In this document: piece by piece, positions 10,421 to 56,409 of the stretch
How the letters are laid out: every line of letters starts with the position of its first letter
Numbering within the stretch: position 1 is the stretch's first letter
Source of the DNA: Eubacteriales bacterium
Lineage (GTDB): Bacteria; Bacillota; Clostridia; Oscillospirales; CAG-272
Length of the DNA: 64,000 nucleotides
NCBI GenBank assembly: GCA_045127215.1
Contig: JBGVPV010000046.1
Span: 1,792 to 65,791 of the forward strand
Direction of reading: 5' to 3'
Translations under genes and position numbers: made by a program
The notes under the pieces: generated by a model
What the model was told of the DNA's origin: nothing
The model's database searches: none
What the model saw: the letters and a program-made list of their open reading frames with translations, nothing else

Positions 10421-11046
10421 ACACGAACGAAAAGATAAACTACCAGCTCATACTTGACAAGACTATCGCCGAGCACGAAAAGCGCGGTGAGCGTCCGCGG
10501 CTTTTACTTCACGCCTGCTGTGCTCCCTGCTCGAGCTACGTGCTCGAATATCTGAGTCGGTATTTTGGCATCACGCTGCTGTTCTTCAACCCCAACATCT
10601 CTCCACAATCCGAATACGATCTGCGCGCAAATGAGCTTGGCAGGCTGATATCGGATATGGGGCTTGGTGATCTGCCGCTTATAACGGCGGAATACACACC
10701 TGAGCTTTTCGAAGAAATAGCCGCAGGGCTTGAAGACGCCGCAGAAGGTGGCGAGAGATGCAAGAGATGCTATCGCTTAAGGCTTGAAAACGCCGCAAGA
10801 GCCGCGAAAGAGGGCGGATACGATTACTTTACCACAACTCTTTCCATAAGCCCTCACAAGAATTCTCGTTGGTTATGCGAGATCGGGGCGGAGCTTGAAA
10901 AACAATACGGCGTATCGTATCTCTATTCTGACTTCAAAAAGAAAAACGGTTATAAGCGTTCTATTGAGCTCTCGGAAAAATACGGCCTTTACCGCCAGGA
11001 TTTCTGCGGATGCAAATATTCAAAAGCGGCAAAAGAAAAAAGGTGA
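10417..11046 (+). CDS. queH: Epoxyqueuosine reductase QueH (DUF208)
   Basis: LLLHACCAPCSSY plus downstream CxxC and C-terminal FCGC motifs. 4-nt overlap with ppa. Confidence 0.85.
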   Translation: MNTNEKINYQLILDKTIAEHEKRGERPRLLLHACCAPCSSYVLEYLSRYFGITLLFFNPNISPQSEYDLRANELGRLISDMGLGDLPLITAEYTPELFEEIAAGLEDAAEGGERCKRCYRLRLENAARAAKEGGYDYFTTTLSISPHKNSRWLCEIGAELEKQYGVSYLYSDFKKKNGYKRSIELSEKYGLYRQDFCGCKYSKAAKEKR

Positions 11047-19958: not shown

Positions 19959-20130
19959 TATCAATCACTCCATTCAAAGTAATACTCCACTATTGTGCGA
20001 TGTGGAACTCGCGCCATTACGCTGACTTTGAAGCGCTTACACACGTGCGTACGTATATATAAAATAATATCGTAGCAAACCTGCAAAAACTTAAAAGAGG
20101 GCATAATAAGCAATTATAATGCAGTTTACA

Positions 20131-20159
20131 ATTATAGCACACTTGTCAAGAGTTGTCAA
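20131..20159 (-). promoter_or_regulatory. Consensus sigma-A promoter upstream of rpoB
   Basis: On the minus strand: TTGACA (20159-20154), 17-nt spacer, TATAAT (20136-20131). About 170 nt upstream of the rpoB start. Confidence 0.55.
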
Positions 20160-20239
20160 GAGATATTTCTCAAAAAAACAATATTTTTTCAAAAAAAATA
20201 TATTTTTGCGTTTTTTACCCCACTATTTTGTCAAAATAC

Positions 20240-20268
20240 TTGTCAAAAAAGAATTAATATGGTATACT
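20240..20268 (+). promoter_or_regulatory. Sigma-A promoter of the alkaline phosphatase gene
   Basis: TTGTCA, 17-nt spacer ending in TGG, then TATACT. Confidence 0.55.
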
Positions 20269-20298
20269 GAATTCATAAACAGACAAGGAGTTTGACGT

Positions 20299-21486
20299 AT
20301 GAAAACAACCTTTATAAAATTCTTAGCGTTACTTACGGTGCTGTGCCTGCTCTTTACCTTCGCGGGCTGTACCGACAATACCCCCGATGATCCTTCGCAG
20401 AATGACGCAGGTAAGATCGACGACGTAGGACTCGGAGATCTCGGCACTCCCACAGGAGAGATCAAAAACGTCATATTCATAATCGGCGACGGTATGGGCA
20501 AGAACCATATAGAAGCGGGCGCGCTTGACAGAGGAAGCAAGTACGCCTTCCAGTCCTGGAAGCAGGTAAACGTTAATACCGATTCCATCGATAAAGATAC
20601 GGGCGCACTCGTGCTTACCGACTCAGCCGCATCCGCTACCGCGCTTGCAACGGGCAGCCTTACCCAAAACAAGTACGTCGGAATTGACGCCGAGGGTGAT
20701 CCCTTAAAGACTATAATGGACTACGCAAGAGCTACCGGTAAGTCTACGGGAATAGTCACGACCGACTATCTCTACGGCGCAACCCCCGCAGGCTTTTCGG
20801 CTCACGCTGACGACAGAAACGCCACCAAGGCGATCACCGAGTCTCAGCTCAGATCGGGCATAGATTTCCTTGCAGGACTGACGAGCGTCGTCTACGAGCA
20901 GACCCTGTACAAAAATATGATCGCGGCGTCTCCCTATTACTTCACCACCTCGCTTGACGACAGTGAGATCGCGCAAAAGGATATGGTGATGCTCTCCCTC
21001 AATATAGAAAACGGAGAAACGGGCAGCGTTACCCTCAGCGACACCGCCAAAACAGCGCTGAACTATCTTGAGAAGAACGAGAACGGCTTCGTTCTTATGA
21101 TAGAGCAGGCTTACATAGACAAGTACTCCCACAATAACGAGTTCGGCAATATGCTAAGCAGAATGCACAGTCTCGGCGACACCGTCGACGCGGTTATGGA
21201 ATGGGTAGGCGACCGCACTGACACCGTTGTTCTGGTCAGCGCAGACCACGAGACAGGCGGACTCAACGTAAGTGCCGACGAAGCCCTCAAGAACACCCAC
21301 AACGGTCAGAACGGCAGCTTCTTCTACAAGTGGACGAGCACCGATCACACCCAGGCGTTCGTTAACCTTTACGTATACGGAATCGACGAGGATTTTGGCA
21401 CGTACAAGAATTTCCTTGATGAAAATCTTATTAAAAACACCGACATTTTCTTGCTTATGAAGCGTCTTGTGACCACGGGAGAATGA
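20299..21486 (+). CDS. Alkaline phosphatase family lipoprotein
   Basis: Lipobox LFTFAGC. Motifs FIIGDGMG and the active-site region LTDSAASATALATG, with a later DHETGG metal site. Confidence 0.9.
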   Translation: MKTTFIKFLALLTVLCLLFTFAGCTDNTPDDPSQNDAGKIDDVGLGDLGTPTGEIKNVIFIIGDGMGKNHIEAGALDRGSKYAFQSWKQVNVNTDSIDKDTGALVLTDSAASATALATGSLTQNKYVGIDAEGDPLKTIMDYARATGKSTGIVTTDYLYGATPAGFSAHADDRNATKAITESQLRSGIDFLAGLTSVVYEQTLYKNMIAASPYYFTTSLDDSEIAQKDMVMLSLNIENGETGSVTLSDTAKTALNYLEKNENGFVLMIEQAYIDKYSHNNEFGNMLSRMHSLGDTVDAVMEWVGDRTDTVVLVSADHETGGLNVSADEALKNTHNGQNGSFFYKWTSTDHTQAFVNLYVYGIDEDFGTYKNFLDENLIKNTDIFLLMKRLVTTGE

Positions 21487-21545
21487 TCCCCTGCCCCGCA
21501 AAACGCGAAAATAGTAAATTTTTAAAACTTTTTTTAAAAAAGGTA

Positions 21546-21574
21546 TTGCAAAAAACAAAAAGTTATGGTATCAT
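21546..21574 (+). promoter_or_regulatory. Sigma-A promoter of rpsT
   Basis: TTGCAA, 17-nt spacer with TGG, then TATCAT. Confidence 0.5.
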
Positions 21575-21662
21575 ATATAACTGTATGAATGAATACGGAG
21601 CGTAACCTCTCATGCGCACCGTCAAGATTTTACCTAACAAATTCTAACGGAGGTGAATTTCA

Positions 21663-21923
21663 ATGCCGAATATCAAGAGTGCAAAGAAGCGTGTTCTCGT
21701 AATCAAGACAAAGACAATGCAGAACAAGATTTTCAAGACTCAGCTCAAGACTGATATCAAGAAGTATCAGGCTGCAATTGCTGAAGGCAACGCAGAGGCT
21801 GCTCAGACAACCTACAAGGCTGCTGTTAAGAAGATCGACCAGGCTGCTGCTCGCGGAATCATCCACAAGAACGCAGCTGCCCGTAAGAAGAGCCAGTTCA
21901 CAAAGGCGCTTAACAATATGTAA
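21663..21923 (+). CDS. rpsT: 30S ribosomal protein S20
   Basis: MPNIKSAKKRV start and a basic 86-aa helical protein with the typical bS20 pattern. Confidence 0.97.
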   Translation: MPNIKSAKKRVLVIKTKTMQNKIFKTQLKTDIKKYQAAIAEGNAEAAQTTYKAAVKKIDQAAARGIIHKNAAARKKSQFTKALNNM

Positions 21924-21927
21924 TTTT

Positions 21928-21970
21928 AACCGTACGCGGACTCTCACCTCCGTGTACGGTTATTTACTTT
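21928..21970 (+). terminator. rpsT terminator
   Basis: aaccgtacgcgga ... tccgtgtacggtt hairpin followed by a T-rich tract. Confidence 0.7.
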
Positions 21971-22122
21971 TCAGCGGACAAATAAAAGAAGCCATACCTT
22001 TCGGCGAGGGAACGTCGCGAGGACATTTTATATTTCCCCACTCTCCCAAAGGATGAGCCTTTATTTAAGCCCGTATCGAATACGGGAAATTCATAAAAAT
22101 CGGATCTCGTTAAACAAAAATC

Positions 22123-22206
22123 GTAGGGACAGGCGTCCTCGCCTGTCCGCCGTAGCGTAAAGTAACATTTTCGCCCGAACGGACAGTCGAGGACGCCTGT
22201 CCCTAC
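22123..22206. repeat. 84-bp palindromic (REP/MITE-like) element
   Basis: Perfect 19-bp inverted repeat gtagggacaggcgtcctcg / cgaggacgcctgtccctac separated by 46 bp. Each arm can also fold on itself (gacaggcg tcct cgcctgtc). Confidence 0.6.
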
Positions 22207-22343
22207 TGATTTATGATGTTCCTACGTTGCAGATGAAGCGCTGCGCTCTCCCCTGCCGTACAAGAAAATATTTATATTAAATAAATTAATCAGCGCACCC
22301 GTTTCATTACGGGTGCGCTGATGCGTCTGTATGTAAATGCTTT

Positions 22344-22649
22344 TTAGAAAAATCCTTTAACTGTGTTTACAGCCATTATAATAAAGTCAACTATTGCCTC
22401 GCCAAGCACGAACAGTAAATTAAGCAAAACAGAGAAAATAATAAATACAGTATAAACGATAAAGAAAATAATACCTACGATAACTGCCAGAGCACCCGTA
22501 ACTACCTCCGCTATCTTATCCCAGACCGTGGGAGCTTCCTCCGCTACCTCGCCGTCAGCCGCAGCCAACACGGGCATTGCAAACGTGGATACCAGCATAA
22601 TTGCCATCATAAAGATGGAAAGAAACTTGATAAACTTCTTGTTTTTCAT
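22344..22649 (-). CDS. Small secreted/membrane protein, paralog 1 of 3
   Basis: Signal peptide MKNKKFIKFLSIFMMAIMLVSTFAMPVLAA, acidic linker, then about 60 aa of very hydrophobic sequence. Clear paralogy to 22923..23225 and 56107..56409. Confidence 0.75.
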   Translation of the reverse strand: MKNKKFIKFLSIFMMAIMLVSTFAMPVLAAADGEVAEEAPTVWDKIAEVVTGALAVIVGIIFFIVYTVFIIFSVLLNLLFVLGEAIVDFIIMAVNTVKGFF

Positions 22650-22922
22650 AGTGATTTCCTGCTTTCCAAATAAAAATAATTTGCAAAATATCTTTGCACT
22701 GCCATTTTAACACGCAGAGCGTTACAAATCTGTTACAAATGGAAAAATGAAAAATATTTTTTTAAGTAAAGATTAGGACGATGACTTGCTGCCGCCGAAA
22801 ATAAGCGGTATAGAAATAATAAAACGGCGGGAGATAAACCCCCGCCCTACAACTAAAGGAGTACGAACAAAATTGTTCGTACTCCTTTTTCATACTTTAT
22901 TCGTTTTGGGTTAATCTATTAG

Positions 22923-23225
22923 TCAGAAAAGACCGATGATGCCGTTTACGATAAGAGAGATCAACTCAAACAGCGCTTGTGCTAATTCGAATATCAACGC
23001 GAACGCGATTACAATGGCGATGAAAACCACGTACAATACCAGTAAAATCGCCAACGCGATAAGACCAAGCACGGACATAATAGCCTCAAGCAAGTTATCA
23101 AAGAAGTTTGATACAGGTGATTCCTCGCCGGGTACGGTTGCAAATGCCGGCATTGCAAAGGTGGATAGCAATAAAACAGTCAATACTAAAAGCGAAATGA
23201 TCTTGATAATTTTTCTGTTTTTCAT
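22923..23225 (-). CDS. Small secreted/membrane protein, paralog 2 of 3
   Basis: MKNRKIIKIISLLVLTVLLLSTFAMPAFAT signal peptide with the same architecture. GGAGGAG RBS upstream. Driven by promoter cassette A. Confidence 0.8.
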   Translation of the reverse strand: MKNRKIIKIISLLVLTVLLLSTFAMPAFATVPGEESPVSNFFDNLLEAIMSVLGLIALAILLVLYVVFIAIVIAFALIFELAQALFELISLIVNGIIGLF

Positions 23226-23262
23226 TTTTCTCCTCCAATTTTTTTATTGTTTTTGTGATTTG

Positions 23263-23393
23263 ATTATAACATACTAAAAAATGGATGTCAATACGGTGGG
23301 GAAAAGTTTTTGTAAAAGGCGCTTTTTGAGGTCAAAGTGGTGGAAAAAACCTGAATCGTGCTGAATGCGGTGTTATGCGCCTATTATTTTTCA
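23263..23393 (-). promoter_or_regulatory. Repeated promoter cassette, copy A
   Basis: Minus strand: TTGACA (23291-23286), 17 nt, TATAAT (23268-23263), plus about 100 bp of conserved upstream sequence. Only 3 mismatches to copy C. Confidence 0.7.
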
Positions 23394-23399
23394 AAAAGA

Positions 23400-24866
23400 T
23401 CAACCCTTGCCGCCGGGCGCATATGGAATGATTGTTTCCCCCGTGTTTTTATCGATCCAGATCTCATCAAAGGTAGAATAGTGATCGATAACATATCTTC
23501 GAATGACTAAAACGTAAACCGAATCCGGAGCCCAAGAATTGTATCCGTGTTCAACATGATATCCGTTTGTTTCAATATCAAATCTTTCCCAATAATCCTC
23601 CGCAATCGTGATTGCCTCATAATGGGAAATTTTATTTTGCCAAGGCAATACCATAGGAGAAAATTTAATGTCTGACTTTGGATTTTCTTCGAAATATTTT
23701 TGAATTTCCTCAAGGCTGACCTCTCTGTCGCCGATATAATATCTTGCATCGGGCTCGCCGTCGTTAACTATTCTCCAAAGCTCCCGCTGTTTTATATCAA
23801 CTCCCTCAAAATAGATCTGATACTCGCCGTATTCAAAATCGCTTCCTGTGTGATTCCAGGAGTGCGAGCCGTCTGTTTGGAGATAATACAAATTTCTGAA
23901 GATAAATGAATAAAGAAAAACTGTGCCGGCGTAATAGCGAAGTATCAAGGTATCACCACAATCAATTACCAGCTCGCATACTCCGTCCTTGTCCATATCC
24001 GTATATGCATATCTCAGATCCGTCGCGCCTTCCAGAGGAATCATCATATAGGGTGTTCTGACGTCTTTAAGATAGACGCACGACTCCCAGAGCTCGTCAA
24101 ACACCTGTCTGCTTCCATTTAATACTTGCTCATACGCCATAATCGCCGTGTCAGCTTCTGTAAAGGCATTTTGATCAAATGTGCTTGTGCGGATAGGCAG
24201 GGTAACAGACTCATCTACCTGAGAGTTTTGGTTTAAGTAAACCAGCTCCAGCGCCATTTCACGCTCCGTGAATTCCGCTTTCAATATGGGCATAACTTCA
24301 CGGAGAGAAAAATCCAACGAAAACGTTTTGAAAAATTCGTTTCTGTCGAATATATCTCTTACCACAATAGCGCCCTTATTTGCATCATTTTCCTGCGTTG
24401 CATCAACGTAAGTCAAAAGATTACCCGAAATTGCAATAACGTCAAGAAATTCCTCAGAAAAGCGATTGTTCTCTGCGTCATAATATTTGCTGACCGACGT
24501 GCCTGTTCCCATTTCAATGCGTATCTCAATTACCCATTGATCGATCGTGGAGATAGTAAGCGGTCTATCGGTGACCTCAACGAGCACCTCTCTTCCCCAA
24601 CGGTCATAAATGTGATATTCGCTTTCTCCGAGTCCAATGTCAACTATTTTATAATGCTTATCAGCTTCAACGATCGGCCCTAACTCCGTGTCGTCGGTAG
24701 TGTTATTTTCTTTATTGTCGTTATTATTGGAATTATCATTACCGTTCATATCGTTTTCCGTATCGCTATCCATACCGGGCAATTCATTACCGTCATTTTG
24801 CACAGTACAGGAAATCAGCGAAAATATCATAATCAAGCAAAGCCAAAAAGCGATATATTTTTTCAT
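23400..24866 (-). CDS. Hypothetical lipoprotein (488 aa)
   Basis: Lipobox IFSLISC, then an Asn/Asp-rich low-complexity linker and globular domains of unknown family. Confidence 0.8.
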   Translation of the reverse strand: MKKYIAFWLCLIMIFSLISCTVQNDGNELPGMDSDTENDMNGNDNSNNNDNKENNTTDDTELGPIVEADKHYKIVDIGLGESEYHIYDRWGREVLVEVTDRPLTISTIDQWVIEIRIEMGTGTSVSKYYDAENNRFSEEFLDVIAISGNLLTYVDATQENDANKGAIVVRDIFDRNEFFKTFSLDFSLREVMPILKAEFTEREMALELVYLNQNSQVDESVTLPIRTSTFDQNAFTEADTAIMAYEQVLNGSRQVFDELWESCVYLKDVRTPYMMIPLEGATDLRYAYTDMDKDGVCELVIDCGDTLILRYYAGTVFLYSFIFRNLYYLQTDGSHSWNHTGSDFEYGEYQIYFEGVDIKQRELWRIVNDGEPDARYYIGDREVSLEEIQKYFEENPKSDIKFSPMVLPWQNKISHYEAITIAEDYWERFDIETNGYHVEHGYNSWAPDSVYVLVIRRYVIDHYSTFDEIWIDKNTGETIIPYAPGGKG

Positions 24867-24897
24867 GTGTAATCTCCGAATTTATATTGATAAAACA

Positions 24898-24990
24898 AGT
24901 ATAGCATACTAAAAAATGGATGTCAATACGGTGGGGAAAAGTTTTTGTAAAAGGCACTTTTTGAGGTCAAAGTGGTGGAAAAAACCTGAA
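24898..24990 (-). promoter_or_regulatory. Repeated promoter cassette, copy B (truncated)
   Basis: Minus strand: TTGACA (24926-24921), 17 nt, TATACT (24903-24898). 86 bp nearly identical to copy A (1 mismatch), after which the sequences diverge. Confidence 0.7.
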
Positions 24991-25157
24991 ATTTGATTTG
25001 TTTGACAGATTGTAAATTCAAATTTGACAAATTAATACGCAAATTCCATAAAAAAGCTTGCATAATATGGCAAACGGTGATATAATGGTTACATCACAAT
25101 GACCACCGCAAAAAAGCACCGCGCCTTCCTTGCGGGATCTTTTAGGAGGAAAACAAA

Positions 25158-26975
25158 ATGAAAAAGATATCAGTATTACTGATAGCACTTGTTCTTGCGC
25201 TTTCGCTTACTTCCTGCGCTTTTGTCAAGGGAATACTCGTTAATTACGAGGTTAAATTCGACCTTAACGGCGGCGTAGCCGGCGAAGGATTTGTTGAAAG
25301 CGTTACCGTAAAGCACGGCAAAACAGTCGCTATGTCCACTCCCACGATGGAGAACTTCACGTTTGAGGGTTGGTATGACGGAGATACCCTTTACACCGCC
25401 GAAACCCCCATCGAAAAGAACGTTACCCTTGTAGCAAAGTGGAAATTCAACAACACCTACACACTCACCTTTGAGACAGGCGGCATGGCAGACGTTCCCG
25501 TATCCCACCCCGTGATCGGTGAGCTTCCCGATATCCCTGCAGCGCCTCAGGTTGAAGGCTACGTTTTCGCGGGTTGGTATTTTGATCCCGAATTCACAAC
25601 AAGATTTTTCTTTGATTATTCCTTGAACGAGGCAACCACTCTTTATGCTAAGTTCTATGATCTTGCCCTCGGCGAGTACACGGTAATTTCCAACTACGAG
25701 CAGCTCGCAGCTATCAAGGACGCCCCCGATGCAAAGTATCTCCTTGCTTGCGACATCAACTGTAAGGGTGAAACACTTGATGCTATCAATGAATTTACAG
25801 GCGAGATTGATGGTAACGGATATAGGATATTCAACTTCAGCATTAATAAAGACGCTGATTTCGTGTCATTTATCAATGTAAACAAGGGCACTGTAAAGAA
25901 TCTCACATTTGATGACTTTACATTTGACGTATTATATAACGCTGGCGGCTCATCATATTATGGTGTTGTTTGCGGTATAAATAATGGAACTGTTGAAAAC
26001 TGTCATACAAAAAACGGCGTAATAACAATAAATTACAGTATTTATGCTACAAGAATCAATGTATATTTCGGTGGAATTGTTGGATATAATACCGGAGTAG
26101 TTGAAGGATGCACAAACAACGCGACTATCAATACTTCTTTTTCTGCAAGCGGCGACGGGGCTTGGTATTATACGAACAACGGTATTATAGCTGCTAATGT
26201 AGCAGGAATCTGTGGTTATATTGAGCCAACAGGTAAGGTAATTGATTGCGCTAACCTCGCTGAGATTTTTGTTATTGCACAGTCCCATAACGGATATGGA
26301 TATAACTATATTCACGCTGCTGGCATAGTCGGCGAAAATACGGGTAAAGTTGAAAGCAGCAAAAACATCGGAAATATTGATGTTAATTTGATAGACTCAG
26401 GATATATTTCTTTCCATATCGGTGGCGGAGTTGCTATCAATCAAGCCGGAAGCGTTATAAATTCCTATGCAAAATGTAACATCAATATTAAGAACAATTC
26501 CAATGACGCCGATAGCATACTCGGTGGATTCTCAGGATATAACAGCGGTAAGCTTCATAACTGCTATAGTGCCGTTAACATAAAGGATACCACCGCTACA
26601 CATAAGGCGCTCGGCGGCTTTGTTGGCTTCAACGAGCTTTTGTCCGGTAGCGAGTCTCTTGTAAATAAGTGCTTTGCTATGGGTAGCATTGAGATCACGG
26701 GAACTCCCAAAAACATTGGAGCTTTCGCGGGTCTTTCCACAGGTACTATCAAGGACGCTTACTACGCGGATACCTTGACGATCAATAAGGTCGTTACAAC
26801 TACTGACGAAAACGGTGAAACAACCGAAACACTCGAGCCCGTAGCTACCACGAATACCCTCGGCACCGCAAAGACCGAGAGCGAGCTTCTCGCGCTTGAT
26901 TTCCTTGAAAACACACTCTATTTCGATAGAATGGTTTGGTTCTTGGTTGACGGCAAGCTCCCTGAGCTCAGATAA
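25158..26975 (+). CDS. Surface lipoprotein with Listeria-Bacteroides (InlB B-type) repeats and GLUG-like motifs
   Basis: Lipobox LSLTSC. Two F(E/A)GWY...TLYAKW/F repeats. Multiple GG(I/F)VG / GLUG-like repeats in the C-terminal half. Confidence 0.8.
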   Translation: MKKISVLLIALVLALSLTSCAFVKGILVNYEVKFDLNGGVAGEGFVESVTVKHGKTVAMSTPTMENFTFEGWYDGDTLYTAETPIEKNVTLVAKWKFNNTYTLTFETGGMADVPVSHPVIGELPDIPAAPQVEGYVFAGWYFDPEFTTRFFFDYSLNEATTLYAKFYDLALGEYTVISNYEQLAAIKDAPDAKYLLACDINCKGETLDAINEFTGEIDGNGYRIFNFSINKDADFVSFINVNKGTVKNLTFDDFTFDVLYNAGGSSYYGVVCGINNGTVENCHTKNGVITINYSIYATRINVYFGGIVGYNTGVVEGCTNNATINTSFSASGDGAWYYTNNGIIAANVAGICGYIEPTGKVIDCANLAEIFVIAQSHNGYGYNYIHAAGIVGENTGKVESSKNIGNIDVNLIDSGYISFHIGGGVAINQAGSVINSYAKCNINIKNNSNDADSILGGFSGYNSGKLHNCYSAVNIKDTTATHKALGGFVGFNELLSGSESLVNKCFAMGSIEITGTPKNIGAFAGLSTGTIKDAYYADTLTINKVVTTTDENGETTETLEPVATTNTLGTAKTESELLALDFLENTLYFDRMVWFLVDGKLPELR

Positions 26976-26995
26976 TCTGATAAGATAAAAAATTT

Positions 26996-27027
26996 AACGG
27001 CTACTCCTCACGGAGTAGCCGTTTTTA
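26996..27027. terminator. Terminator hairpin between convergent genes
   Basis: aacggctactcc tcac ggagtagccgtt followed by TTTT. Confidence 0.8.
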
Positions 27028-27110
27028 GTATTTTGTTATGTATGCTCAATGGTAACCTTGGTCAACGCAAGTCTGATGAATAATTGTAGTGTTACTCGAT
27101 GCTCCCGGCA

Positions 27111-29198
27111 TCACGTATACCATGGACCGGTATCTTCCCATTTTCCGTATTCATACCATTGACTGCATTTAATTCCCATTTTATCATCTCCGGATTTTTT
27201 ATCCAATTTGAGTTTATTACCATCAATCGTTACGACGCATTCGCATTTATTTTTTTCGATTTTTATTGTTAATATATATTGCCCTGATTTGTATGCAAGG
27301 CTCCAGGTACCTTCATACCAGGCGCAGTTATCAGTTTGTATATATCCGACACCGACGATAATCTCACCATTTTCCTTGAAGGTAATATCCCATGCTTTGT
27401 AACGTTCCCAGCCGTTCTCTACAACTGTTTCAATGTAATACCATTCACCGATAAGTCTTTCTGACATTGATCCTGACGAAAAAGGCGGTAATATTATATT
27501 ACTTCCGGAAGAATCGTTAGTTTTCAGGAGATTAAGATCTTCAAGGTATTGGCGGATTTCTTTTGTGTAATCTTTTTTGCTGTTTATTTCATCATTTTCT
27601 TGTGCTAACAAACATATTTCAAAATTGCCAATCATTTCATTAACGTTCTTATAATATCCGTCTAACAGTCCCGCACCACCATATACAGACATATATTTAT
27701 CTTTAGCTTCAAAGCATTTGCGCGTTGCTTTCAGATAAATTATGGCTGTCATACGGGATATTTCCAGCGCTTTCGCATCTATTTCGCTATTTGTTATCTT
27801 TGAATCTAAATATGCATCAAAGGCATTTTGCTGGATAGCGGTATATGCGGATAATTTGGAGATTTCACTAGCCGCTTTGTTAACCGGCCAAAATACTGAA
27901 AATGCGGCATCCATGACATCCAAGTACGTTCCTATGGATGAAATGTGAATACTTGTTCCTGCTGCTTCTGCCCATATATCAATGGTATCTTTTACCAGTT
28001 TATCACAAGCGTCGGCAGTAAACTTACCCACTAAGGGCTTTGCGCTTTCCAAAATAGCAACAATGTTAGAGTTCATCATTGCACAAACTTTTTGCGCCGC
28101 AAGCTTTTCGCCGCCAGTCGTTTTTGCACCTTTTCTTAGGTATATATATTCCAATGCGTCGGCATAGGATTCCGTATCTGCCATCATAATATTTAAACAG
28201 GCAAATCCGGCGTTTAGCATTTTAAACGCGCTGTTGATCTGCTTCATGGTTTTAGGAAAATCGCCGGGGTCGCCCTTCCATGACTCGTAATCTCCGAGAA
28301 CTTCTGAGCCCTCTTTTATTAACATCTCACGATATAATTTAGGGTCACTCATGGTATCGGATATATCCTTGGTCAACTTTTTTCCGAGCGCGTAGGCTAT
28401 TTCCTCATAACACTCTTTAGATGTCAATCCTTCTACCAAATCTACGGAAAGTGTAGTGAAATTTGAAAATGATTTTCCTATTGAATTTACAATCCCAAGC
28501 GTTTCCGAGGTTGTATCCTCCGGAATGCCAAAATCTCTGAATGTATCAACATATACTTCATAATCATATAAACTGGTATCGTCTTTATCTCCTGTAACGG
28601 TAACCGTTTTTTTCCACACGTCATCAAGATTTAATAGACTATCAAGTACATGCATCGCCGTCAATCCTGCTACGGCCCAGGGATCATCGCCCAATTCTTC
28701 GACATAAAAGAAGTAAAAGTCCATAGGGTCAAACTCATCTATTACTTCCCAATAAGACAAAATGTCCGATTCAAGACGAAGACATCCCTTTTCGATGTCT
28801 ATCGAAACGTTTAACCAGGGGGCTATTTCACTGAACGGCAAAAAGTAATTACCGTCTAATGAGATGGCACCTGAGAAGGACTGCTTTATATTATTGACTT
28901 TTAAAGTTTGCCTTTTGTAGTCAATAACTACTGTTTTCATTCCCAGCTTGAAGATACCTCGATTGTCTTCGGTTACTTGGTAGCTGTATCTTGTCAGATC
29001 TGAAAATTGTTCTGCTTTAATATAAATGTCATTTTCGTTAACCAATGCATCTACAGTTTTTATATATCCGTTGCCCTCCTTAGATACTACAATATCTATC
29101 AGCACAGGCTCAAGATCATCGTTCTTGGCAAACGCAGAAAACGAGAGGACATTGATTATAATCGCTATTAATAATATGGTTGAGATTATTGATTTCAT
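27111..29198 (-). CDS. Hypothetical secreted protein (695 aa)
   Basis: Signal peptide MKSIISTILLIAIIINVLSFSAFA. No catalytic motif recognised. The start overlaps the upstream gene stop by 4 nt. Confidence 0.75.
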   Translation of the reverse strand: MKSIISTILLIAIIINVLSFSAFAKNDDLEPVLIDIVVSKEGNGYIKTVDALVNENDIYIKAEQFSDLTRYSYQVTEDNRGIFKLGMKTVVIDYKRQTLKVNNIKQSFSGAISLDGNYFLPFSEIAPWLNVSIDIEKGCLRLESDILSYWEVIDEFDPMDFYFFYVEELGDDPWAVAGLTAMHVLDSLLNLDDVWKKTVTVTGDKDDTSLYDYEVYVDTFRDFGIPEDTTSETLGIVNSIGKSFSNFTTLSVDLVEGLTSKECYEEIAYALGKKLTKDISDTMSDPKLYREMLIKEGSEVLGDYESWKGDPGDFPKTMKQINSAFKMLNAGFACLNIMMADTESYADALEYIYLRKGAKTTGGEKLAAQKVCAMMNSNIVAILESAKPLVGKFTADACDKLVKDTIDIWAEAAGTSIHISSIGTYLDVMDAAFSVFWPVNKAASEISKLSAYTAIQQNAFDAYLDSKITNSEIDAKALEISRMTAIIYLKATRKCFEAKDKYMSVYGGAGLLDGYYKNVNEMIGNFEICLLAQENDEINSKKDYTKEIRQYLEDLNLLKTNDSSGSNIILPPFSSGSMSERLIGEWYYIETVVENGWERYKAWDITFKENGEIIVGVGYIQTDNCAWYEGTWSLAYKSGQYILTIKIEKNKCECVVTIDGNKLKLDKKSGDDKMGIKCSQWYEYGKWEDTGPWYT

Positions 29199-29782
29199 TT
29201 TGTGTTCTCCTGATCTAAGAACTCTATTAAATATTCCTGAACGGCATGAGTATTACCGTTGCAAAAATTTACGATTTCTTCTGTGAATATTGGTGAATAT
29301 CCGTCGTCATCTCTAGAGAATTTTACGGTAAACTCTTTTTTTACGACGGGGGCTTTTTCAAGAACCGATTCAAGGCGTGCTATGATTTCGCTTACCGAAG
29401 CGACTTCATCGGCGGAAAGGGTGGAAAAATATTCGATCAATACCTCTGAATAGTCCACGCTTGTGATAAGGCAGTTAGCATAATATCCTTCACTTGAAAG
29501 CTTTACTCCCAATACGTCTATTGATAGGTGTTTTTTAAGGGGAGCGCGAAAAGAATTTACATCTTCTATCAGATTAATTGTTTGATCAACTGTATCATCC
29601 ATGATACTTTGCGCTTGTTTCTTTGTTAAGATCAAGCCGGAACTAAAAATAATAATACATGAAATTACTACTATGAGTATCACGCTTATTATTGTTATAA
29701 GCAACCGTTTATTTTGGGAAAATATTCTTGTCAAGATCGGCTGTGATTCTTTGTCATTCGTTTTTTTTGCGTTCATATACAC
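29195..29782 (-). CDS. Hypothetical membrane-anchored protein (195 aa)
   Basis: Single N-terminal TM segment (LLITIISVILIVVISCIIIFSSGLIL). Translationally coupled to 27111..29198. Downstream of promoter cassette C. Confidence 0.7.
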   Translation of the reverse strand: MYMNAKKTNDKESQPILTRIFSQNKRLLITIISVILIVVISCIIIFSSGLILTKKQAQSIMDDTVDQTINLIEDVNSFRAPLKKHLSIDVLGVKLSSEGYYANCLITSVDYSEVLIEYFSTLSADEVASVSEIIARLESVLEKAPVVKKEFTVKFSRDDDGYSPIFTEEIVNFCNGNTHAVQEYLIEFLDQENTK

Positions 29783-29878
29783 CTCAAATTAAAAGATATG
29801 TGAATATATTTAAATTATATCATAGCGGTAGTTTTTTGTCAATCATATTTATATCCGTCAATTTTACACGATCGGATT

Positions 29879-29998
29879 CTATTAACATACTAAAAAATGG
29901 ATGTCAATACGGTGGGGAAAAGTTTTTGTAAAAAGCGCTTTTTGAGGTCAAAGTGGTGGAAAAAACCTGAATCGTACTGAATGCGGTGTTATGTGCCT
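29879..29998 (-). promoter_or_regulatory. Repeated promoter cassette, copy C
   Basis: Minus strand: TTGACA (29907-29902), 17 nt, TAATAG (29884-29879). About 114 bp nearly identical to copy A. Confidence 0.65.
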
Positions 29999-30105
29999 AA
30001 AATACAGTCTGCATAATAAATACAACAAAAAAAGTTGACAATCACGTCACGAATGTGATATAGTATTATCGTACATATTATATTTTTTTAAGAAAGGTCA
30101 TGTGT

Positions 30106-31638
30106 ATGAAAAGTTGGTTGAAAAATGCGGTAATATATAATATTTATCCTCAGTCGTTTAACGATTCAAACGGTGACGGTATTGGGGATATAAACGGTCT
30201 TATTGAAAAACTGGATTACATTGAAGAAATGGGGTATTCGGCTGTTTGGCTCAATCCTATTTACGAGAGCCCTTTCCGCGATGCCGGATACGATGTTTCG
30301 GACTTTTATAAGGTCGCGCCACGTTATGGAACCAATAACGATTTCAAAAGATTTTGCAATGAATGCCAAAAGCGTGGTATAAAGGTCATAATGGATCTGG
30401 TTGCCGGACATACGTCGCTTGAATGTGATTGGTTTAAAAAATCGGCGCTTCCTCAAAAAAACGAATACACCAACAGATATATATGGACAGATTCATGGAC
30501 CGAGAGAGGAAGTAATTTTATAAGTGGCTACTCGGACAGAGACGGCTGCTATATGAAAAATTTCTTTTACTGTCAACCCGCCTTGAATTACGGATATAAG
30601 CAGATCACAAGACCTTGGCAGTTGCCTATGGATCATCCCGATTGTATGGCGACAAGACGCGAGCTTCTCAACATAATGGATTTTTGGTGTGATCTGGGAG
30701 CAACCGGATTCAGAGTAGATATGGCACATTCCTTGGTAAAAGACGATCCCACGGGTGAAGGTATACGCGAGCTTTGGCAATATTTGAAGTCTGAATTTTT
30801 GAAAAAGCATCCGGGCGGAATTTTAATTGCCGAATGGGGCAATCCCGGAAAATCGATACCTACGGGTTTTGATATTGATTTTCTGCTTCATTTTGAAAAT
30901 AAAGCGTATACCACGCTGTTCAGATATGAAAAAGGAACTAATCAAAGTACCAAGTGGATAGGTGAGAGCTATTTCAGAACAGAGGGCAAGGGAGATATCA
31001 ACGAATTTCTTGATATTTATCTTCCTATGTATGAAAAAACCAAGGATAAGGGATACATATCTCTTCCTACGGGCAATCACGATATGCCAAGAATATCCCT
31101 TGGCAGAGATACGACGGATCTGAAAATAGTCTATACCTTTCTTATGACGATGCCCGGTGTTCCCTTCGTTTATTACGGAGACGAGATAGGAATGAAGTAT
31201 ATAGAGGGCTTGACCTCTAAGGAGGGCGGATATAACAGAACGGGTGCGAGAACGCCTATGCAATGGAACGGCGATAAAAACTTCGGATTCTCAGATTGCG
31301 ACGAAACCTATTTACCCGTGGATACGTCATCTGATGCTCCACACGTAGAAAAACAGCTTGCCGATGAAAATTCGCTGATAAATTACGTCAAAACCCTCAT
31401 TAAGCTGAGAAAAGAAAATCGTAATTTATGGGCTGACGTTGGATTTGAGGTGATTGACACGGGATACCCGTTTATTTACCAAAGGGGAGACGTGTTAATC
31501 GTTATCAATCCTAAAGATCAGGCTTTTGAGAAAAAGATCAAGGGCAGCATTCTGTGCGGAGTAAATGCAAATATCGATGCAGACGTATTGAATATAAACG
31601 GCAAGGGCGCGGCGATCGTTGATTTAAAATCATTTTAA
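30106..31638 (+). CDS. GH13 alpha-amylase family protein (alpha-glucosidase / oligo-1,6-glucosidase-like)
   Basis: WLKNAVIYNIYPQSFNDSNGDGIGD, GFRVDMAHS, EWGN and GNHDMPR conserved GH13 regions. I prefer the ATG at 30106 for its RBS spacing; the ORF opens at 30100. Confidence 0.9.
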   Translation: MKSWLKNAVIYNIYPQSFNDSNGDGIGDINGLIEKLDYIEEMGYSAVWLNPIYESPFRDAGYDVSDFYKVAPRYGTNNDFKRFCNECQKRGIKVIMDLVAGHTSLECDWFKKSALPQKNEYTNRYIWTDSWTERGSNFISGYSDRDGCYMKNFFYCQPALNYGYKQITRPWQLPMDHPDCMATRRELLNIMDFWCDLGATGFRVDMAHSLVKDDPTGEGIRELWQYLKSEFLKKHPGGILIAEWGNPGKSIPTGFDIDFLLHFENKAYTTLFRYEKGTNQSTKWIGESYFRTEGKGDINEFLDIYLPMYEKTKDKGYISLPTGNHDMPRISLGRDTTDLKIVYTFLMTMPGVPFVYYGDEIGMKYIEGLTSKEGGYNRTGARTPMQWNGDKNFGFSDCDETYLPVDTSSDAPHVEKQLADENSLINYVKTLIKLRKENRNLWADVGFEVIDTGYPFIYQRGDVLIVINPKDQAFEKKIKGSILCGVNANIDADVLNINGKGAAIVDLKSF

Positions 31639-31668
31639 TTAAAATGAATAATACGGTAAATTGAACGA

Positions 31669-31700
31669 AAAGACGGCACGCGATTGCGTACCGTCTTTTG
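31669..31700. terminator. Bidirectional terminator, shared by the amylase gene and the ancestral tRNA-Leu
   Basis: aaaagacggcacgc ... gcgtaccgtctttt hairpin with U-tracts on both strands. Confidence 0.75.
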
Positions 31701-31702
31701 TT

Positions 31703-31756
31703 TGGTGCGGGTAACAGGACTTGAACCTGCACGAAGTCGCCCCCACTAGAACCTGA
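31703..31756 (-). pseudogene. 3-prime fragment of a split tRNA-Leu(CAG), from anticodon loop to CCA; left junction of the element
   Basis: The first 30 nt (tggtgcgggtaacaggacttgaacctgcac) and the last 12 nt (actagaacctga) match the intact tRNA at 55390..55443, with a different 12-nt variable arm. Homology stops exactly at ACCTGA (31751-31756). Confidence 0.85.
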
Positions 31757-31900
31757 TGGTAACGTCACCTCGGTGGAAGGTTTTTCGCACCATTTTTATA
31801 TTATTTATAGTATAGCATAAAAGTCAAGGAAAATCAAGTCTAAAGTGTTAAATCTGCTTTTGGTCTGGACTTTCCGAAAGCGTTGTGATATTGTGTTGTG

Positions 31901-31968
31901 GTTCACAAAAAAGCGAAACTAAAGTTCACAAAAAAGCGATTGCTTTTGTTCGCAATCTGTGATATAAT
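31901..31968 (+). promoter_or_regulatory. Direct-repeat (LytTR-box-like) operator plus promoter upstream of the two-component genes
   Basis: GTTCACAAAAAAGCGA at 31901-31916 and 31924-31939 (23-bp period), abutting TTGCTT (31940-31945), 17 nt, TATAAT (31963-31968). Confidence 0.55.
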
Positions 31969-32050
31969 ATTTTGGGTTTTTGTATTCAAAGATATTTTTT
32001 AGTAGATCTGTGAAAGCAGTTATAATCATAAAATGAAAGAAGGTGTGGTA

Positions 32051-32764
32051 ATGCGAAGGATTGCAGTTCTTGACGATGAAAAATCATATTTAGACTCCGT
32101 CTTAGCACTTTTGGAAGAATATGAAAGTGAACGAAACGAGCATTTTGCGACGGAACGATTTATCAATCCGTCTGACTTTCTTGATAAACTGGAAAGCGGT
32201 GCGGTATATGATATCTATCTTCTTGATATCTATATGCCCGGTGTTACCGGTATGAGTATCGCAACGGAGCTTCGCAGCCGTGGGGTCAAGAGTCCTATTA
32301 TTTTTCTGACCTCCTCCACCGATCACGCTTTACAAGCCTTCGGTGTAGATGCTACCCATTATTTGCTGAAACCCTATACAAAAGACAATTTTTATGTGGG
32401 TATGGATAAAGCGATGCAAAGCATCACCTCCCACAAAGACGACAGCATCGTTTTGAAAGTGGATAATGAATACCGGAGTATCCCGGTATCCAAAATTATA
32501 TACTGCGAAGCCGAAGACAAATATCAGCGGCTCTATTTGGACAAGGCTGAAAGATTGCTTATCCGTATCAGCGGTACAGAACTTTATAAACAGCTTTCGG
32601 AATTTGATTGTTTTTACCGCTGCGGCAGAGCGCATATTGTAAATCTGAACCATATAAGCCGTGTGACACAAGACGGTGTATCGTTCAAAAGCGGTATGGA
32701 TTTGAGTCTTCCGCATACAGTGCAGGCAGGCTTGCGAAAAGCATTCTTTGACTATTTCAATTAG
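32051..32764 (+). CDS. LytTR-family response regulator (AgrA/ComE-like)
   Basis: Receiver domain (IAVLDDE ... IYLLDIYMPGVTG ... IIFLTS ... YLLKP) plus a LytTR DNA-binding domain (IPVSKIIYCEAEDKYQRLYL ... FYRCGRAHIVNLNHI). The start could be 32033 or 32051. Confidence 0.92.
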   Translation: MRRIAVLDDEKSYLDSVLALLEEYESERNEHFATERFINPSDFLDKLESGAVYDIYLLDIYMPGVTGMSIATELRSRGVKSPIIFLTSSTDHALQAFGVDATHYLLKPYTKDNFYVGMDKAMQSITSHKDDSIVLKVDNEYRSIPVSKIIYCEAEDKYQRLYLDKAERLLIRISGTELYKQLSEFDCFYRCGRAHIVNLNHISRVTQDGVSFKSGMDLSLPHTVQAGLRKAFFDYFN

Positions 32765-32779
32765 GAGGTGCCTTTTTAA

Positions 32780-33997
32780 GTGATGCAACATATTGTTTTT
32801 TTGACACTTACGATACTATCTCATATCTGTGCCTCCTTGTTTTTTGCAAAGCCACGTTTTAATAAAATCATCACTGCGGTGATCTGGCTGCTGTACAGCA
32901 GTGTGTTTTTTATGCTCAGTCCAGAGGGATATATCAATTACTTTATTTCCGTTGCGCTGCATCTGACACTGTTTTTTGTCACAACCACAGGTCGTGCCGT
33001 TGAAAAAGGGTTTCTGTTTTTTAGTTATGCCACAACCTATACCTGTTTTTCCACATTATTTAATATGCTGGTGCAGGTCGTGGATAGTATGACGGTCAAG
33101 GTCATTCTTGCCTTTGTGTGTATGGCAGTTATGCAATTTGTTTTGTATAGGCTGCTGCTTCCTTCTTTTCAAAAGGTCGCAAAGTATATTCGTGAGGGTT
33201 GGGGCAAATTCTATGCGGTGGTGCTCAGCTTTTGGGTGCTTATTGTCGGACAGTTCCTGTTTACTTGGATGGAGCTGATAAAAGGTGTTGACAAGATCCT
33301 TTGTTTGATTACGATCGTTGCTTTCTGCTTTACCTATATCGCCATGTTCAACAACATGAAGAACATCGTAGAGCTGTCACGGGAAAAGCAAAAATCCTTA
33401 CATACCGAGCTTTTGCAAATACAGGTAGATGCGCAATCAAAGGAAGCTGCCATCGTGCGGCAAAACCGTCATGATATGCGTCACCACTACCAGGAACTAT
33501 TGTCAATGGCACTTGAAGGGAAAACAGAAAAGATCATCGAATATTTAAAGATTCAGAGTAAAAGCATCGAAGCGATGAATACCGGTCGTTTCTGTGAAAA
33601 TGAAACCATTAACAATATTTTGAAGGTCTTTTATCAAAAGGCTACAAGCCAAAATATCACCATAGACATTCGTGCAGCAGCAAAACCGGATATTTCCGTG
33701 CCGTCTCCGGCACTTGTAACCATCGTTGCGAACATTTTGGAAAACGCCCTTCACGGAGCTGTGGAAAGCAAAGCGAAAAGCCCCAATATTACAGTTTCCA
33801 TTAAACACAAATCAGGTCACTTAGTGATCTCGTGTGAGAACACTTGTAGTCAGTCCCTAAAATTTGAAGAGATGCCCGAATACTTACAAGGCATCGGCAT
33901 CCACAGTGTTATCTCCACTGCGGAAAAGTATAACGGCTCCTGCCGCTTTTCGGCATCTGACGGTGTGTTCAGCTGTACAGTCATTATGGATGAATAA
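32780..33997 (+). CDS. GHKL sensor histidine kinase, AgrC/ComD-like (HPK10-type)
   Basis: About 6 N-terminal TM segments, an H-box NRHDMRHHY, an N-box ILENALHGA and a G-box GIGIHSV. Confidence 0.88.
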   Translation: MMQHIVFLTLTILSHICASLFFAKPRFNKIITAVIWLLYSSVFFMLSPEGYINYFISVALHLTLFFVTTTGRAVEKGFLFFSYATTYTCFSTLFNMLVQVVDSMTVKVILAFVCMAVMQFVLYRLLLPSFQKVAKYIREGWGKFYAVVLSFWVLIVGQFLFTWMELIKGVDKILCLITIVAFCFTYIAMFNNMKNIVELSREKQKSLHTELLQIQVDAQSKEAAIVRQNRHDMRHHYQELLSMALEGKTEKIIEYLKIQSKSIEAMNTGRFCENETINNILKVFYQKATSQNITIDIRAAAKPDISVPSPALVTIVANILENALHGAVESKAKSPNITVSIKHKSGHLVISCENTCSQSLKFEEMPEYLQGIGIHSVISTAEKYNGSCRFSASDGVFSCTVIMDE

Positions 33998-56106: not shown

Positions 56107-56409
56107 ATGAAAAACAAAAAGTCTGTTAAACTCGTCTCGCTGCTTATGGTCGCTCTCGTTTTGATGACCGTATTAGCAATGCCCGCGCTTGCCGCAAGCG
56201 GTGCCGGCGAAGCCGCAGCCCCCACCTTCATTGAGAGATTATTTGACACAATCGTAGGAATATTCACCAGCCTGATCGACGCACTTTTCTTCATTATTAC
56301 TACATTGGCTCAGGCATTGTTTGACGTACTTATGGCAATAGTTGACTCTGTTAAGTGTCTGTTTGACACCCTCGTAAACATAATCAGATCCATAATTAAC
56401 TTGTTCTAA
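56107..56409 (+). CDS. Small secreted/membrane protein, paralog 3 of 3
   Basis: MKNKKSVKLVSLLMVALVLMTVLAMPALAA signal peptide, acidic/Ala linker and a hydrophobic-amphipathic 65-aa body ending in NLF. AAAGGAGAA RBS. Confidence 0.8.
   Translation: MKNKKSVKLVSLLMVALVLMTVLAMPALAASGAGEAAAPTFIERLFDTIVGIFTSLIDALFFIITTLAQALFDVLMAIVDSVKCLFDTLVNIIRSIINLF

Follow-up and report, generated by a model that had tools for sequence, protein, structure and literature searches.

A lipoprotein promoter module probably reused in front of mostly exported, mostly unrelated proteins in an uncultured gut Clostridia genome

We analysed a 64,000-nucleotide (nt) stretch of the genome of an Eubacteriales bacterium (Oscillospirales, lineage CAG-272; GenBank assembly GCA_045127215.1, contig JBGVPV010000046.1, positions 1,792 to 65,791 of the forward strand), hereafter the window, in which position 1 is the first letter. 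The window carries three near-identical minus-strand copies, A, B, and C, of a promoter module of about 95 nt, which is the native 5' control region of a genus-wide family of surface lipoproteins. Our best explanation as a whole, to which we assign a probability of roughly 0.7, is that of a lipoprotein promoter module that has been reused and recruited in this genome, with A, B, and C as local copies. The genus would use the module as the 5' control of surface lipoproteins that share promoter, Shine-Dalgarno sequence, and signal peptide, and in this genome it would have been recruited in front of eight transcription units with mostly unrelated and mostly exported products. Copies A, B, and C would have arisen last, by local segmental duplication or gene conversion with differing end points; A and B would work as promoters, and C would have lost its -10 element during copying. 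Two boxes upstream of the promoter may bind a protein on one face of the helix, as a regulator or RNA-polymerase contact, and so co-express the eight units, and copying probably went through recombination rather than transposition.

A repeat search of the window returned a single direct-repeat family at 23267-23383, 24902-25018, and 29883-29999, with A and C 97% alike over 117 nt. Direct reading of the minus strand gave three differing positions between A and C over 116 nt (23267-23382 versus 29883-29998). Copies A and B differed at one position between TTCAGG and AGTATG and at two more in the -10 region, and the three copies were mutually 97-99% alike over 86-116 nt. The E-values of the window copies in an nhmmer search of the genome, 1e-25 to 1e-26, exclude chance similarity. 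These results bear out an earlier description made from the letters alone (the sequence-only reading), which had reported three near-identical minus-strand copies (now placed at 23263-23382, 24898-24990, and 29883-29998), with three differences between A and C and one between A and B. Its statement that copy A starts 7 nt past the stop codon of the upstream gene did not hold, as the homology of A with C sets in at 23382, which is 18 nt beyond the gene B stop codon.

The core of copy A (23263-23355, minus strand), which drives gene A1, was identified by direct reading, repeat search, nhmmer, and promoter scan. It comprises a distal box, TTTTTTCCACCAC (23337-23349), a proximal box, TTTTCCCCACC (23295-23305), a -35 element, TTGACA (23286-23291), a 17-nt spacer with a T6 tract and TG, and a -10 element, TATAAT (23263-23268). 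Beyond the core lies a 27-nt extension, AGGCGCATAACACCGCATTCAGCACGA (23356-23382), which is outside the conserved module; in this genome it is found at copies A and C only, and it is absent from all fetched loci of other species. Copy B (24898-24990, minus strand), which drives the 488-aa lipoprotein gene B, consists of the core without the extension, with its distal box at 24972-24984, proximal box at 24930-24940, -35 element at 24921-24926, and -10 element, TATACT, at 24898-24903. Copy C (29883-29998, minus strand) has core and extension (29972-29998), with its distal box at 29953-29965, proximal box at 29911-29921, and -35 element at 29902-29907. In place of a -10 element it has TAATAG (29879-29884). 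The layout of the copies thus differs: B is core only, A and C are core plus flank, and C stops within the -10 element.

In a scan against the consensus promoter, A (TTGACA, 17 nt, TATAAT, with TG) scored 12/12 and B (TTGACA, 17 nt, TATACT, with TG) 11/12, and copy C was not called as a promoter. Because its homology to A ends in the middle of the -10 hexamer, copy C is truncated. The sequence-only reading had given each copy a TTGACA, a 17-nt spacer, and a -10 element; this stands for A and B, and for C the -10 element is lost. The same scan found a separate 12/12 consensus promoter (TTGACA, 17 nt, TATAAT, with TG) on the minus strand at 29814-29842, immediately upstream of gene C1. This promoter, 65 nt downstream of copy C, is likely the one that serves the C1-C2 operon. 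Copy C itself is probably a by-product and at most lends it the upstream boxes.

BLAST and then an nhmmer profile search of the organism's own 1.77-Mb assembly yielded eight full-length copies (E 4e-26 to 6e-7), so that the genome-wide search proposed by the sequence-only reading found eight rather than three. The additional copies are D on contig C80, E on C69, F on C74, G on C18, and H on C40; in a similarity search of the genome, copies D, E, and F showed 76-83% similarity over 82-92 nt. A lipoprotein gene comes first in five of the eight units, and seven encode exported or membrane proteins. In the window, A1 (22923-23225, minus strand) encodes a 100-aa protein with a signal peptide, a very hydrophobic body, and a weak TrbC/VirB2-like match, and is followed by a terminator at 22826-22846. 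Gene B (23400-24866, minus strand) encodes a lipoprotein with the family signal peptide MKKYIAFWLCLIMIFSLISC. C1 (29195-29782, minus strand) encodes a 195-aa membrane protein, and C2 (27111-29198, minus strand) a 695-aa secreted protein. Elsewhere in the genome, the module precedes genes for lipoproteins of 887 aa (D) and 413 aa (F), for BspA-type leucine-rich-repeat lipoproteins (E and G), and, at H, for an ABC ATPase and then a 721-aa permease. All-against-all BLASTP revealed no mutual matches among A1, B, C1, C2, F, and H, and E and G were the sole paralogues, in agreement with the earlier claim that the downstream genes are unrelated to each other. Pfam searches with B, C1, C2, D, and F gave no informative domains.

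All eight copies share one architecture. In order, it consists of GG, a T-tract, and CACCAC-TT; an A5 tract; TTAAAAAAAC-TTTTCCCCACC; three bases and TTGACA; a 17-nt spacer with a T-tract and TRTG; and TATAnT. The core is a near-consensus sigma-A promoter, TTGACA / 17 nt / TRTGnTATAnT. Copies A and B have every element of an extended -10 sigma-70/sigma-A promoter (a -35 element, a 16-18 nt spacer, a -10 element, and TG at -15/-14), and copy C does not. Upstream of the core are two direct boxes, (T)nCACCAC centred at about -86 and TTTTCCCCACC centred at about -44, with A-tracts between them; these positions assume a transcription start 7 nt after the -10 element. Of 41 modules, 38 had their two CCAC cores 42 bp apart, and every module measured had 17 nt between the -35 and -10 elements. 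Forty-two base pairs correspond to four helical turns, placing the boxes on one face of the helix. The sequence-only reading had noted a pair of related half-sites about 40 bp apart; the pair is present, and its starts lie 42 bp apart. A third repeat at the midpoint between the boxes was sought, and there is none.

Among 50 distinct aligned modules, CACCACTT, the A5 tract, TTTTCCCCACC, TATTGACA, the spacer T-tract, and TRTGnTATAnT were near-invariant, and the intervening stretches varied freely. The combination CCACC-N3-TTGACA was essentially confined to modules (10 sites versus 0.8 expected). The module always pointed toward a start codon, which lay about 25-40 nt downstream of the module end. 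Judged from the alignment, this conservation pattern is the phylogenetic footprint of a promoter and two putative protein-contact sites.

The conserved sequence might instead encode something in its own right. The plus strand has an open frame in A, B, and C (MDVNTVGKSFCK...), which could represent an antisense open reading frame (ORF) or an antisense RNA, but an in-frame ATG is kept in only 5 of the 50 modules, and several contain stops and frameshifts. An Rfam scan of 20000-33000 with E-values up to 10 produced no match on the modules, and folding of both DNA strands produced no structure (z-scores -0.13 to +0.63). We give the antisense explanation next to no weight, as had the sequence-only reading, which judged the 26-27 codon ORF unlikely to be coding. 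Since there is no fold, we also reject a structured RNA and a hairpin of the repetitive extragenic palindromic (REP) type or of a miniature inverted-repeat transposable element (MITE). No tRNA was found on the modules either. A Chi-like role of GTGGTGG/CCACCAC was considered and dropped, as the heptamer is not over-represented (76 and 108 occurrences versus 87.5 expected).

The module could also be a very strong constitutive promoter, with its boxes and A/T tracts acting as UP-element-like or curvature contacts to RNA polymerase and no regulator involved. A -35 element, 17-nt spacer, and extended -10 element that are all consensus would suit such a promoter, as would the stretch from -61 to -46, TTTTAAAAAAACTTTT, which is A/T-rich like an UP element. 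Gene A1 is, moreover, among the few genes of the organism seen in sparse metatranscriptomes. By contrast, UP elements do not look like the CACCAC at -86 or the C-rich CCCCACC that is invariant at -45 to -39. Two similar direct boxes kept strictly 42 bp apart rather suggest a protein that recognizes a specific sequence, and genes B and E went undetected in the same RNA runs. On this evidence a purely constitutive promoter is possible but doubtful.

As for known regulators, we compared the module consensus with the sites of the alternative sigma factors SigH, SigE/K, SigI, and sigma-54 and with MraZ and DnaA boxes, and none fits. Nor, to our knowledge, does any described operator match the box sequence (a T-tract followed by CCACC) with a 42-bp start-to-start phasing. 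Phased direct operators that abut the -35 element are exemplified by AraC/XylS- and OmpR/PhoB-type sites. The module resembles the operators of class I/II activators or looping repressors in having two similar direct boxes on the same face, the proximal one ending 3 nt from the -35 element; unlike class I/II activator operators, it has a core that is already consensus, and activation is not required. LytTR operators consist of two 9-bp direct repeats about 12 bp apart, giving a 21-bp period. The module resembles those of the AgrA/ComE/VirR type in its direct repeats upstream of the -35 element, and a LytTR regulator gene lies 2 kb away, in a system at 32033-33997. The module period is 42 bp, however, and the module occurs in many genomes and loci that lack that system. 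We rejected the neighbouring LytTR regulator as the box-binding factor, its own boxes, TTCAC(A/G)A(C)AAAAAAGCG with a 21-bp period, being unrelated in sequence and spacing.

To survey the genus, we used a model built from the sequences of the eight own copies alone. Of the 71 other species searched, 34 had the module, with one to three copies each, and the present genome had the highest number, eight. Sixteen genomes from other families of the order gave weak, generic-promoter-like matches only and no strong one. A scan of 185,579 species genomes for the exact pattern returned 21 loci, all in metagenome-assembled genomes of uncultured Clostridia, Eubacteriales, or Oscillospiraceae, and all loci with a stated host came from the ruminant gut. 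Of 50 foreign copies that could be assessed, about 42 (about 84%) preceded lipoprotein genes, 28 of them encoding the family signal peptide, MKKYIAFLLCLIMILSLFSC or close variants, and about 14 encoding other lipobox proteins. In the genome studied here, gene B is the sole member of this module-linked family. The portable promoter/operator module that the sequence-only reading had tentatively placed before surface-protein genes is therefore supported, by the eight own copies, the genus-wide conservation, the constrained boxes and spacing, and the seven exported or membrane products.

An alignment of the 5' regions of 23 family members, taken from different species, showed nucleotide conservation across the module, the Shine-Dalgarno sequence, and the signal-peptide codons that collapsed right after the lipobox cysteine. 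The mature parts are mosaic: some members have the C-terminal half of B, others share only its last 70-90 residues, and three members have a different C-terminal domain in common with D. Tandem arrangements of two or three units, each a module with its gene, occur in several species. As an observation on the proteins themselves, the family (23400-24866 in the window; loci L021-L031 and L050-L070) is without a Pfam domain, and its mature parts consist of shuffled blocks, with a conserved C-terminal half of about 250 aa in some members and a PepSY-like stretch of the last 70-90 residues in others.

The vlp genes of Mycoplasma hyorhinis and the vsp genes of M. bovis are families of variable lipoproteins, and vlp promoters have a homopolymer tract in the spacer. 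The vpma genes of M. agalactiae form a further such family (PMC2268961). The module-linked family has the combination that characterizes the vlp/vsp type, a conserved promoter, leader, and signal peptide followed by a divergent mature region, and as in vlp, vsp, and vpma its members are surface lipoproteins that often stand in tandem. The module also shares with vlp the homopolymer tract in the promoter spacer. With a T-tract of only 5-7 nt and a constant 17-nt spacer, however, nothing points to phase switching, and there is no vlp-type switching device. In contrast to the mycoplasma families, we found no site-specific recombinase or inversion sites, each gene has a complete promoter of its own, the organism belongs to the Gram-positive-type gut Clostridia, and other genes of this genome have acquired the promoter but not the signal peptide.

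Homologues of the downstream genes bear on how the promoter spread. Among 60 other species of the genus, the A1 family had three weak partial matches only (E 3e-4 to 1e-3) and no clear homologue. Homologues of gene F occurred in 22 of the 60 species, all without the module, even the one (74% identical) whose synteny with the downstream gene is conserved. The closest H operon elsewhere, whose H1 ATPase is 88% identical, has a different upstream region, again without the module. Module-free homologues of F and H, together with the lack of a clear homologue of A1, indicate that the module was recruited to new genes here. Over a 99-nt alignment, copies D to H were 58-77% like A, B, and C, which is as far as foreign copies are, and pairs from the same genome averaged 0.71 compared with 0.69 for pairs from different genomes. 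These placements are therefore not recent, and loss of the module elsewhere is a conceivable alternative for them.

A classical, vertically inherited regulon would account for boxes and spacing that are kept across species and for the functional coherence of the units, seven of which encode exported or membrane proteins; the identity of A, B, and C would then come from purifying selection or gene conversion, with no recruitment. The 22 module-free F homologues, the syntenic one included, and the H1 orthologue argue against it, as does A1, which has three weak partial matches and no clear homologue among 60 other species. In addition, selection cannot account for the identity of the 27-nt extension, which is not conserved, or for a copy C truncated in its -10 element. 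We consider such a regulon improbable.

Putative mobile promoters were defined by Matus-Garcia, Nijveen and van Passel (2012) as sequences at least 80% identical over at least 50 nt upstream of the start codons of at least two genes in one genome, where the adjacent genes are non-paralogous and the sequence is not a known insertion sequence (IS), tRNA, or RNA family; the mechanism of their spread was unknown (PMC3575422). The module has all of these properties, in its identity, its non-paralogous genes (E and G excepted), and its lack of an IS, tRNA, or RNA match, and it is like them in the recurrence of highly similar, non-IS, non-RNA sequences before non-paralogous genes. Unlike them, it has a home family that can be named and boxes and phasing that are defined across 35 species, its recruitment is shown by homologues, and its recent copies can be seen with differing ends and strain polymorphism.

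These recent copies are A, B, and C. On the 99-nt alignment, which includes diverged bases past the -10 element, they were 88-92% alike mutually and 79-86% alike when compared with the best foreign copy. Copies B and C bound a strain-variable segment (25010-29923) that holds a 605-aa Flg_new/GLUG gene (25158-26975, plus strand), C2, and C1. Other strains have A1, B, and the amylase side at about 96-97% identity, and for these, public gut metagenome contigs showed zero depth over the segment. In contigs of these strains, a piece of 54-83 nt similar to the gene B 3' end is fused straight to 29998, the outer edge of the A/C homology, and each module that continues upstream bears the 27-nt flank. 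On the simplest reading, the repeat unit before B is longer in the other strains and comprises the B 3' end, a spacer, the flank, and the module, and the window strain would have acquired, between two module copies, the segment with C1-C2 and Flg_new. The genes of this patch have a GC content of 36-42%, compared with 46.7% for the genome. We conclude that A, B, and C are recent local segmental duplications or gene conversions and the youngest layer in a low-GC accessory patch.

The differing ends, the truncated copy, and the strain polymorphism point to segmental duplication or recombination and to no transposable unit. The sequence-only reading had offered both a footprint of cassette-like duplication and a MITE-like element; the first is upheld, by the ends, the A/C-only flank, the break in the -10 element of C, and the missing B-C segment, and the second falls, for lack of terminal inverted repeats, target duplications, a fold, or defined ends. 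A MITE- or IS-derived element with an outward promoter, transposing in front of genes, would explain multiple copies before unrelated genes in one genome, and there are precedents such as Correia elements (cited in PMC3575422). Against this, no terminal inverted repeats or flanking direct repeats surround any copy, the module has neither a fold nor an Rfam match, and no transposase domain occurs in the neighbouring genes. The orientation relative to the start codon is also fixed, and the recent copies have three different left ends. A mobile element is thus very improbable. No inverted repeats flank any of the three window copies, as an inverton would have.

Another explanation takes the module, in family members together with the signal-peptide block, chiefly as a portable stretch of homology for swapping, inserting, or deleting surface-protein cassettes, in the manner of mycoplasma vsp and vlp. 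The variable segment bounded by B and C, with the B-like 3' remnant at its joint, would be expected from such a handle, and so would the mosaic sharing of domains in the family and the tandem arrays of modules and short lipoprotein genes in several species. Yet no dedicated recombinase recurs beside modules, a serine recombinase at one locus being the sole case; there are no inverted repeats for inversion, 90 nt of homology is short, and no silent cassettes were found. The near-equal similarity within and between genomes (0.71 versus 0.69) means that exchange is not frequent. We think this role unlikely. An apparent "serine recombinase family" near modules had to be discarded as an artefact of ORFs running into the module.

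We rate as similarly unlikely, and put forward only tentatively, a fuller scheme in which the module is the operator of a genus-specific regulator that recognizes T-tract-plus-CCACC boxes 42 bp apart. Module and conserved lipoprotein signal peptide would jointly make up an "express-and-export" cassette whose homologous exchange yields strain-variable surface proteins. XRE-type helix-turn-helix genes near modules were tried as a recurrent regulator and set aside, a generic N-terminus being all they have in common.

Transcript data came from three bovine-gut metatranscriptomes, which alone hold the stretch, at very low depth (2-4). All RNA contigs of the organism in the region lay within 22847-23230, that is, in gene A1, between the predicted start at about 23256 and the terminator. 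They end at 23230, inside the predicted 5' leader, and none lies upstream; at a depth of 2-4, these contig ends are not mapped 5' ends. Gene B, immediately upstream, had no contig coverage in the same three metatranscriptomes, and gene E had one doubtful RNA contig, the organism's coverage being very low. The contigs fit an active promoter A and a monocistronic A1 transcript. As for B and E not being seen, either the module is not simply constitutive or the sampled strains lack those genes.

Several points weigh against reuse and recruitment of a lipoprotein promoter as we propose it. RNA support amounts to a few low-depth contigs, and B, with a near-identical promoter, and E were not seen. 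Clustering of the ORF neighbourhoods of 39 module loci revealed no regulator gene that recurs beside modules. With a core promoter that is consensus already, there is no obvious need for an activator. In the cases of F and H, other species may have lost the module instead of this genome having gained it. Finally, the Logan contigs break inside repeats, so that the strain structures are deduced from contig ends and were not read through.

If it is correct, reuse of the lipoprotein promoter gives a concrete and well-bounded case in which the source family, the constrained boxes, the recruitment, and the strain-polymorphic youngest copies are all visible, none of which the original surveys of putative mobile promoters could show. 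It is a well-documented but fairly ordinary case of promoter reuse and involves no new kind of mechanism. It also supplies an uncultured lineage of the ruminant and pig gut, for which there is no genetics, with a candidate regulon and an exactly defined cis-motif, and the module, as a compact, strong, and portable promoter, is a possible expression part for Clostridia. Should the regulator and cassette scheme prove true, the system would be a Gram-positive counterpart of the mycoplasma variable-lipoprotein systems.

We made further observations on genes linked to the module. Gene A1 (22923-23225) has two paralogues of about 100 aa, at 22344-22649 and 56107-56406; all three encode a signal peptide and a very hydrophobic protein with a weak TrbC/VirB2-pilin match (E 1e-4 to 8e-3), and among them only A1 has the module and a metatranscriptome signal. 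The module stands before an ABC-transporter ATPase gene in two species, at about 28264-28350 on contig C28 of genome G064 (locus L134) and at 10918-11016 on the own contig C40. The two ATPases seem unrelated in type. This hints at transporters as a second recurrent target.

Other observations concern the surroundings of the patch. The amylase gene has its own 11/12 promoter at 30035-30064 (plus strand), divergent from copy C. Strains differ within 29998-30099 by an 8-nt insertion, CATATTTG, after 30073 and by single-base indels, and this short intergenic region is a rearrangement hot spot. At 31700-31757 (minus strand) lies a fragment of about 57 nt that resembles the 3' half of a tRNA (...GGTTCAAGTCCTGTTACCCGCACCA), where metagenome contig depth is very high. 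ARAGORN found no intact tRNA, only this 3' fragment, and we dropped the idea of a tRNA-linked island boundary; from its position between the amylase terminator, which it directly follows, and the LytTR/fibre island, the fragment may be the remnant of an attachment site. Over 21851-22201, which spans the end of an rpsT-like gene and an 84-bp palindromic element (22123-22206), summed contig depth reached 160-890x in all metagenomes, compared with 5-15x nearby, and several contigs had small skips that end at 22181. The 84-bp element is likely a multi-copy, REP-like element common to many organisms.

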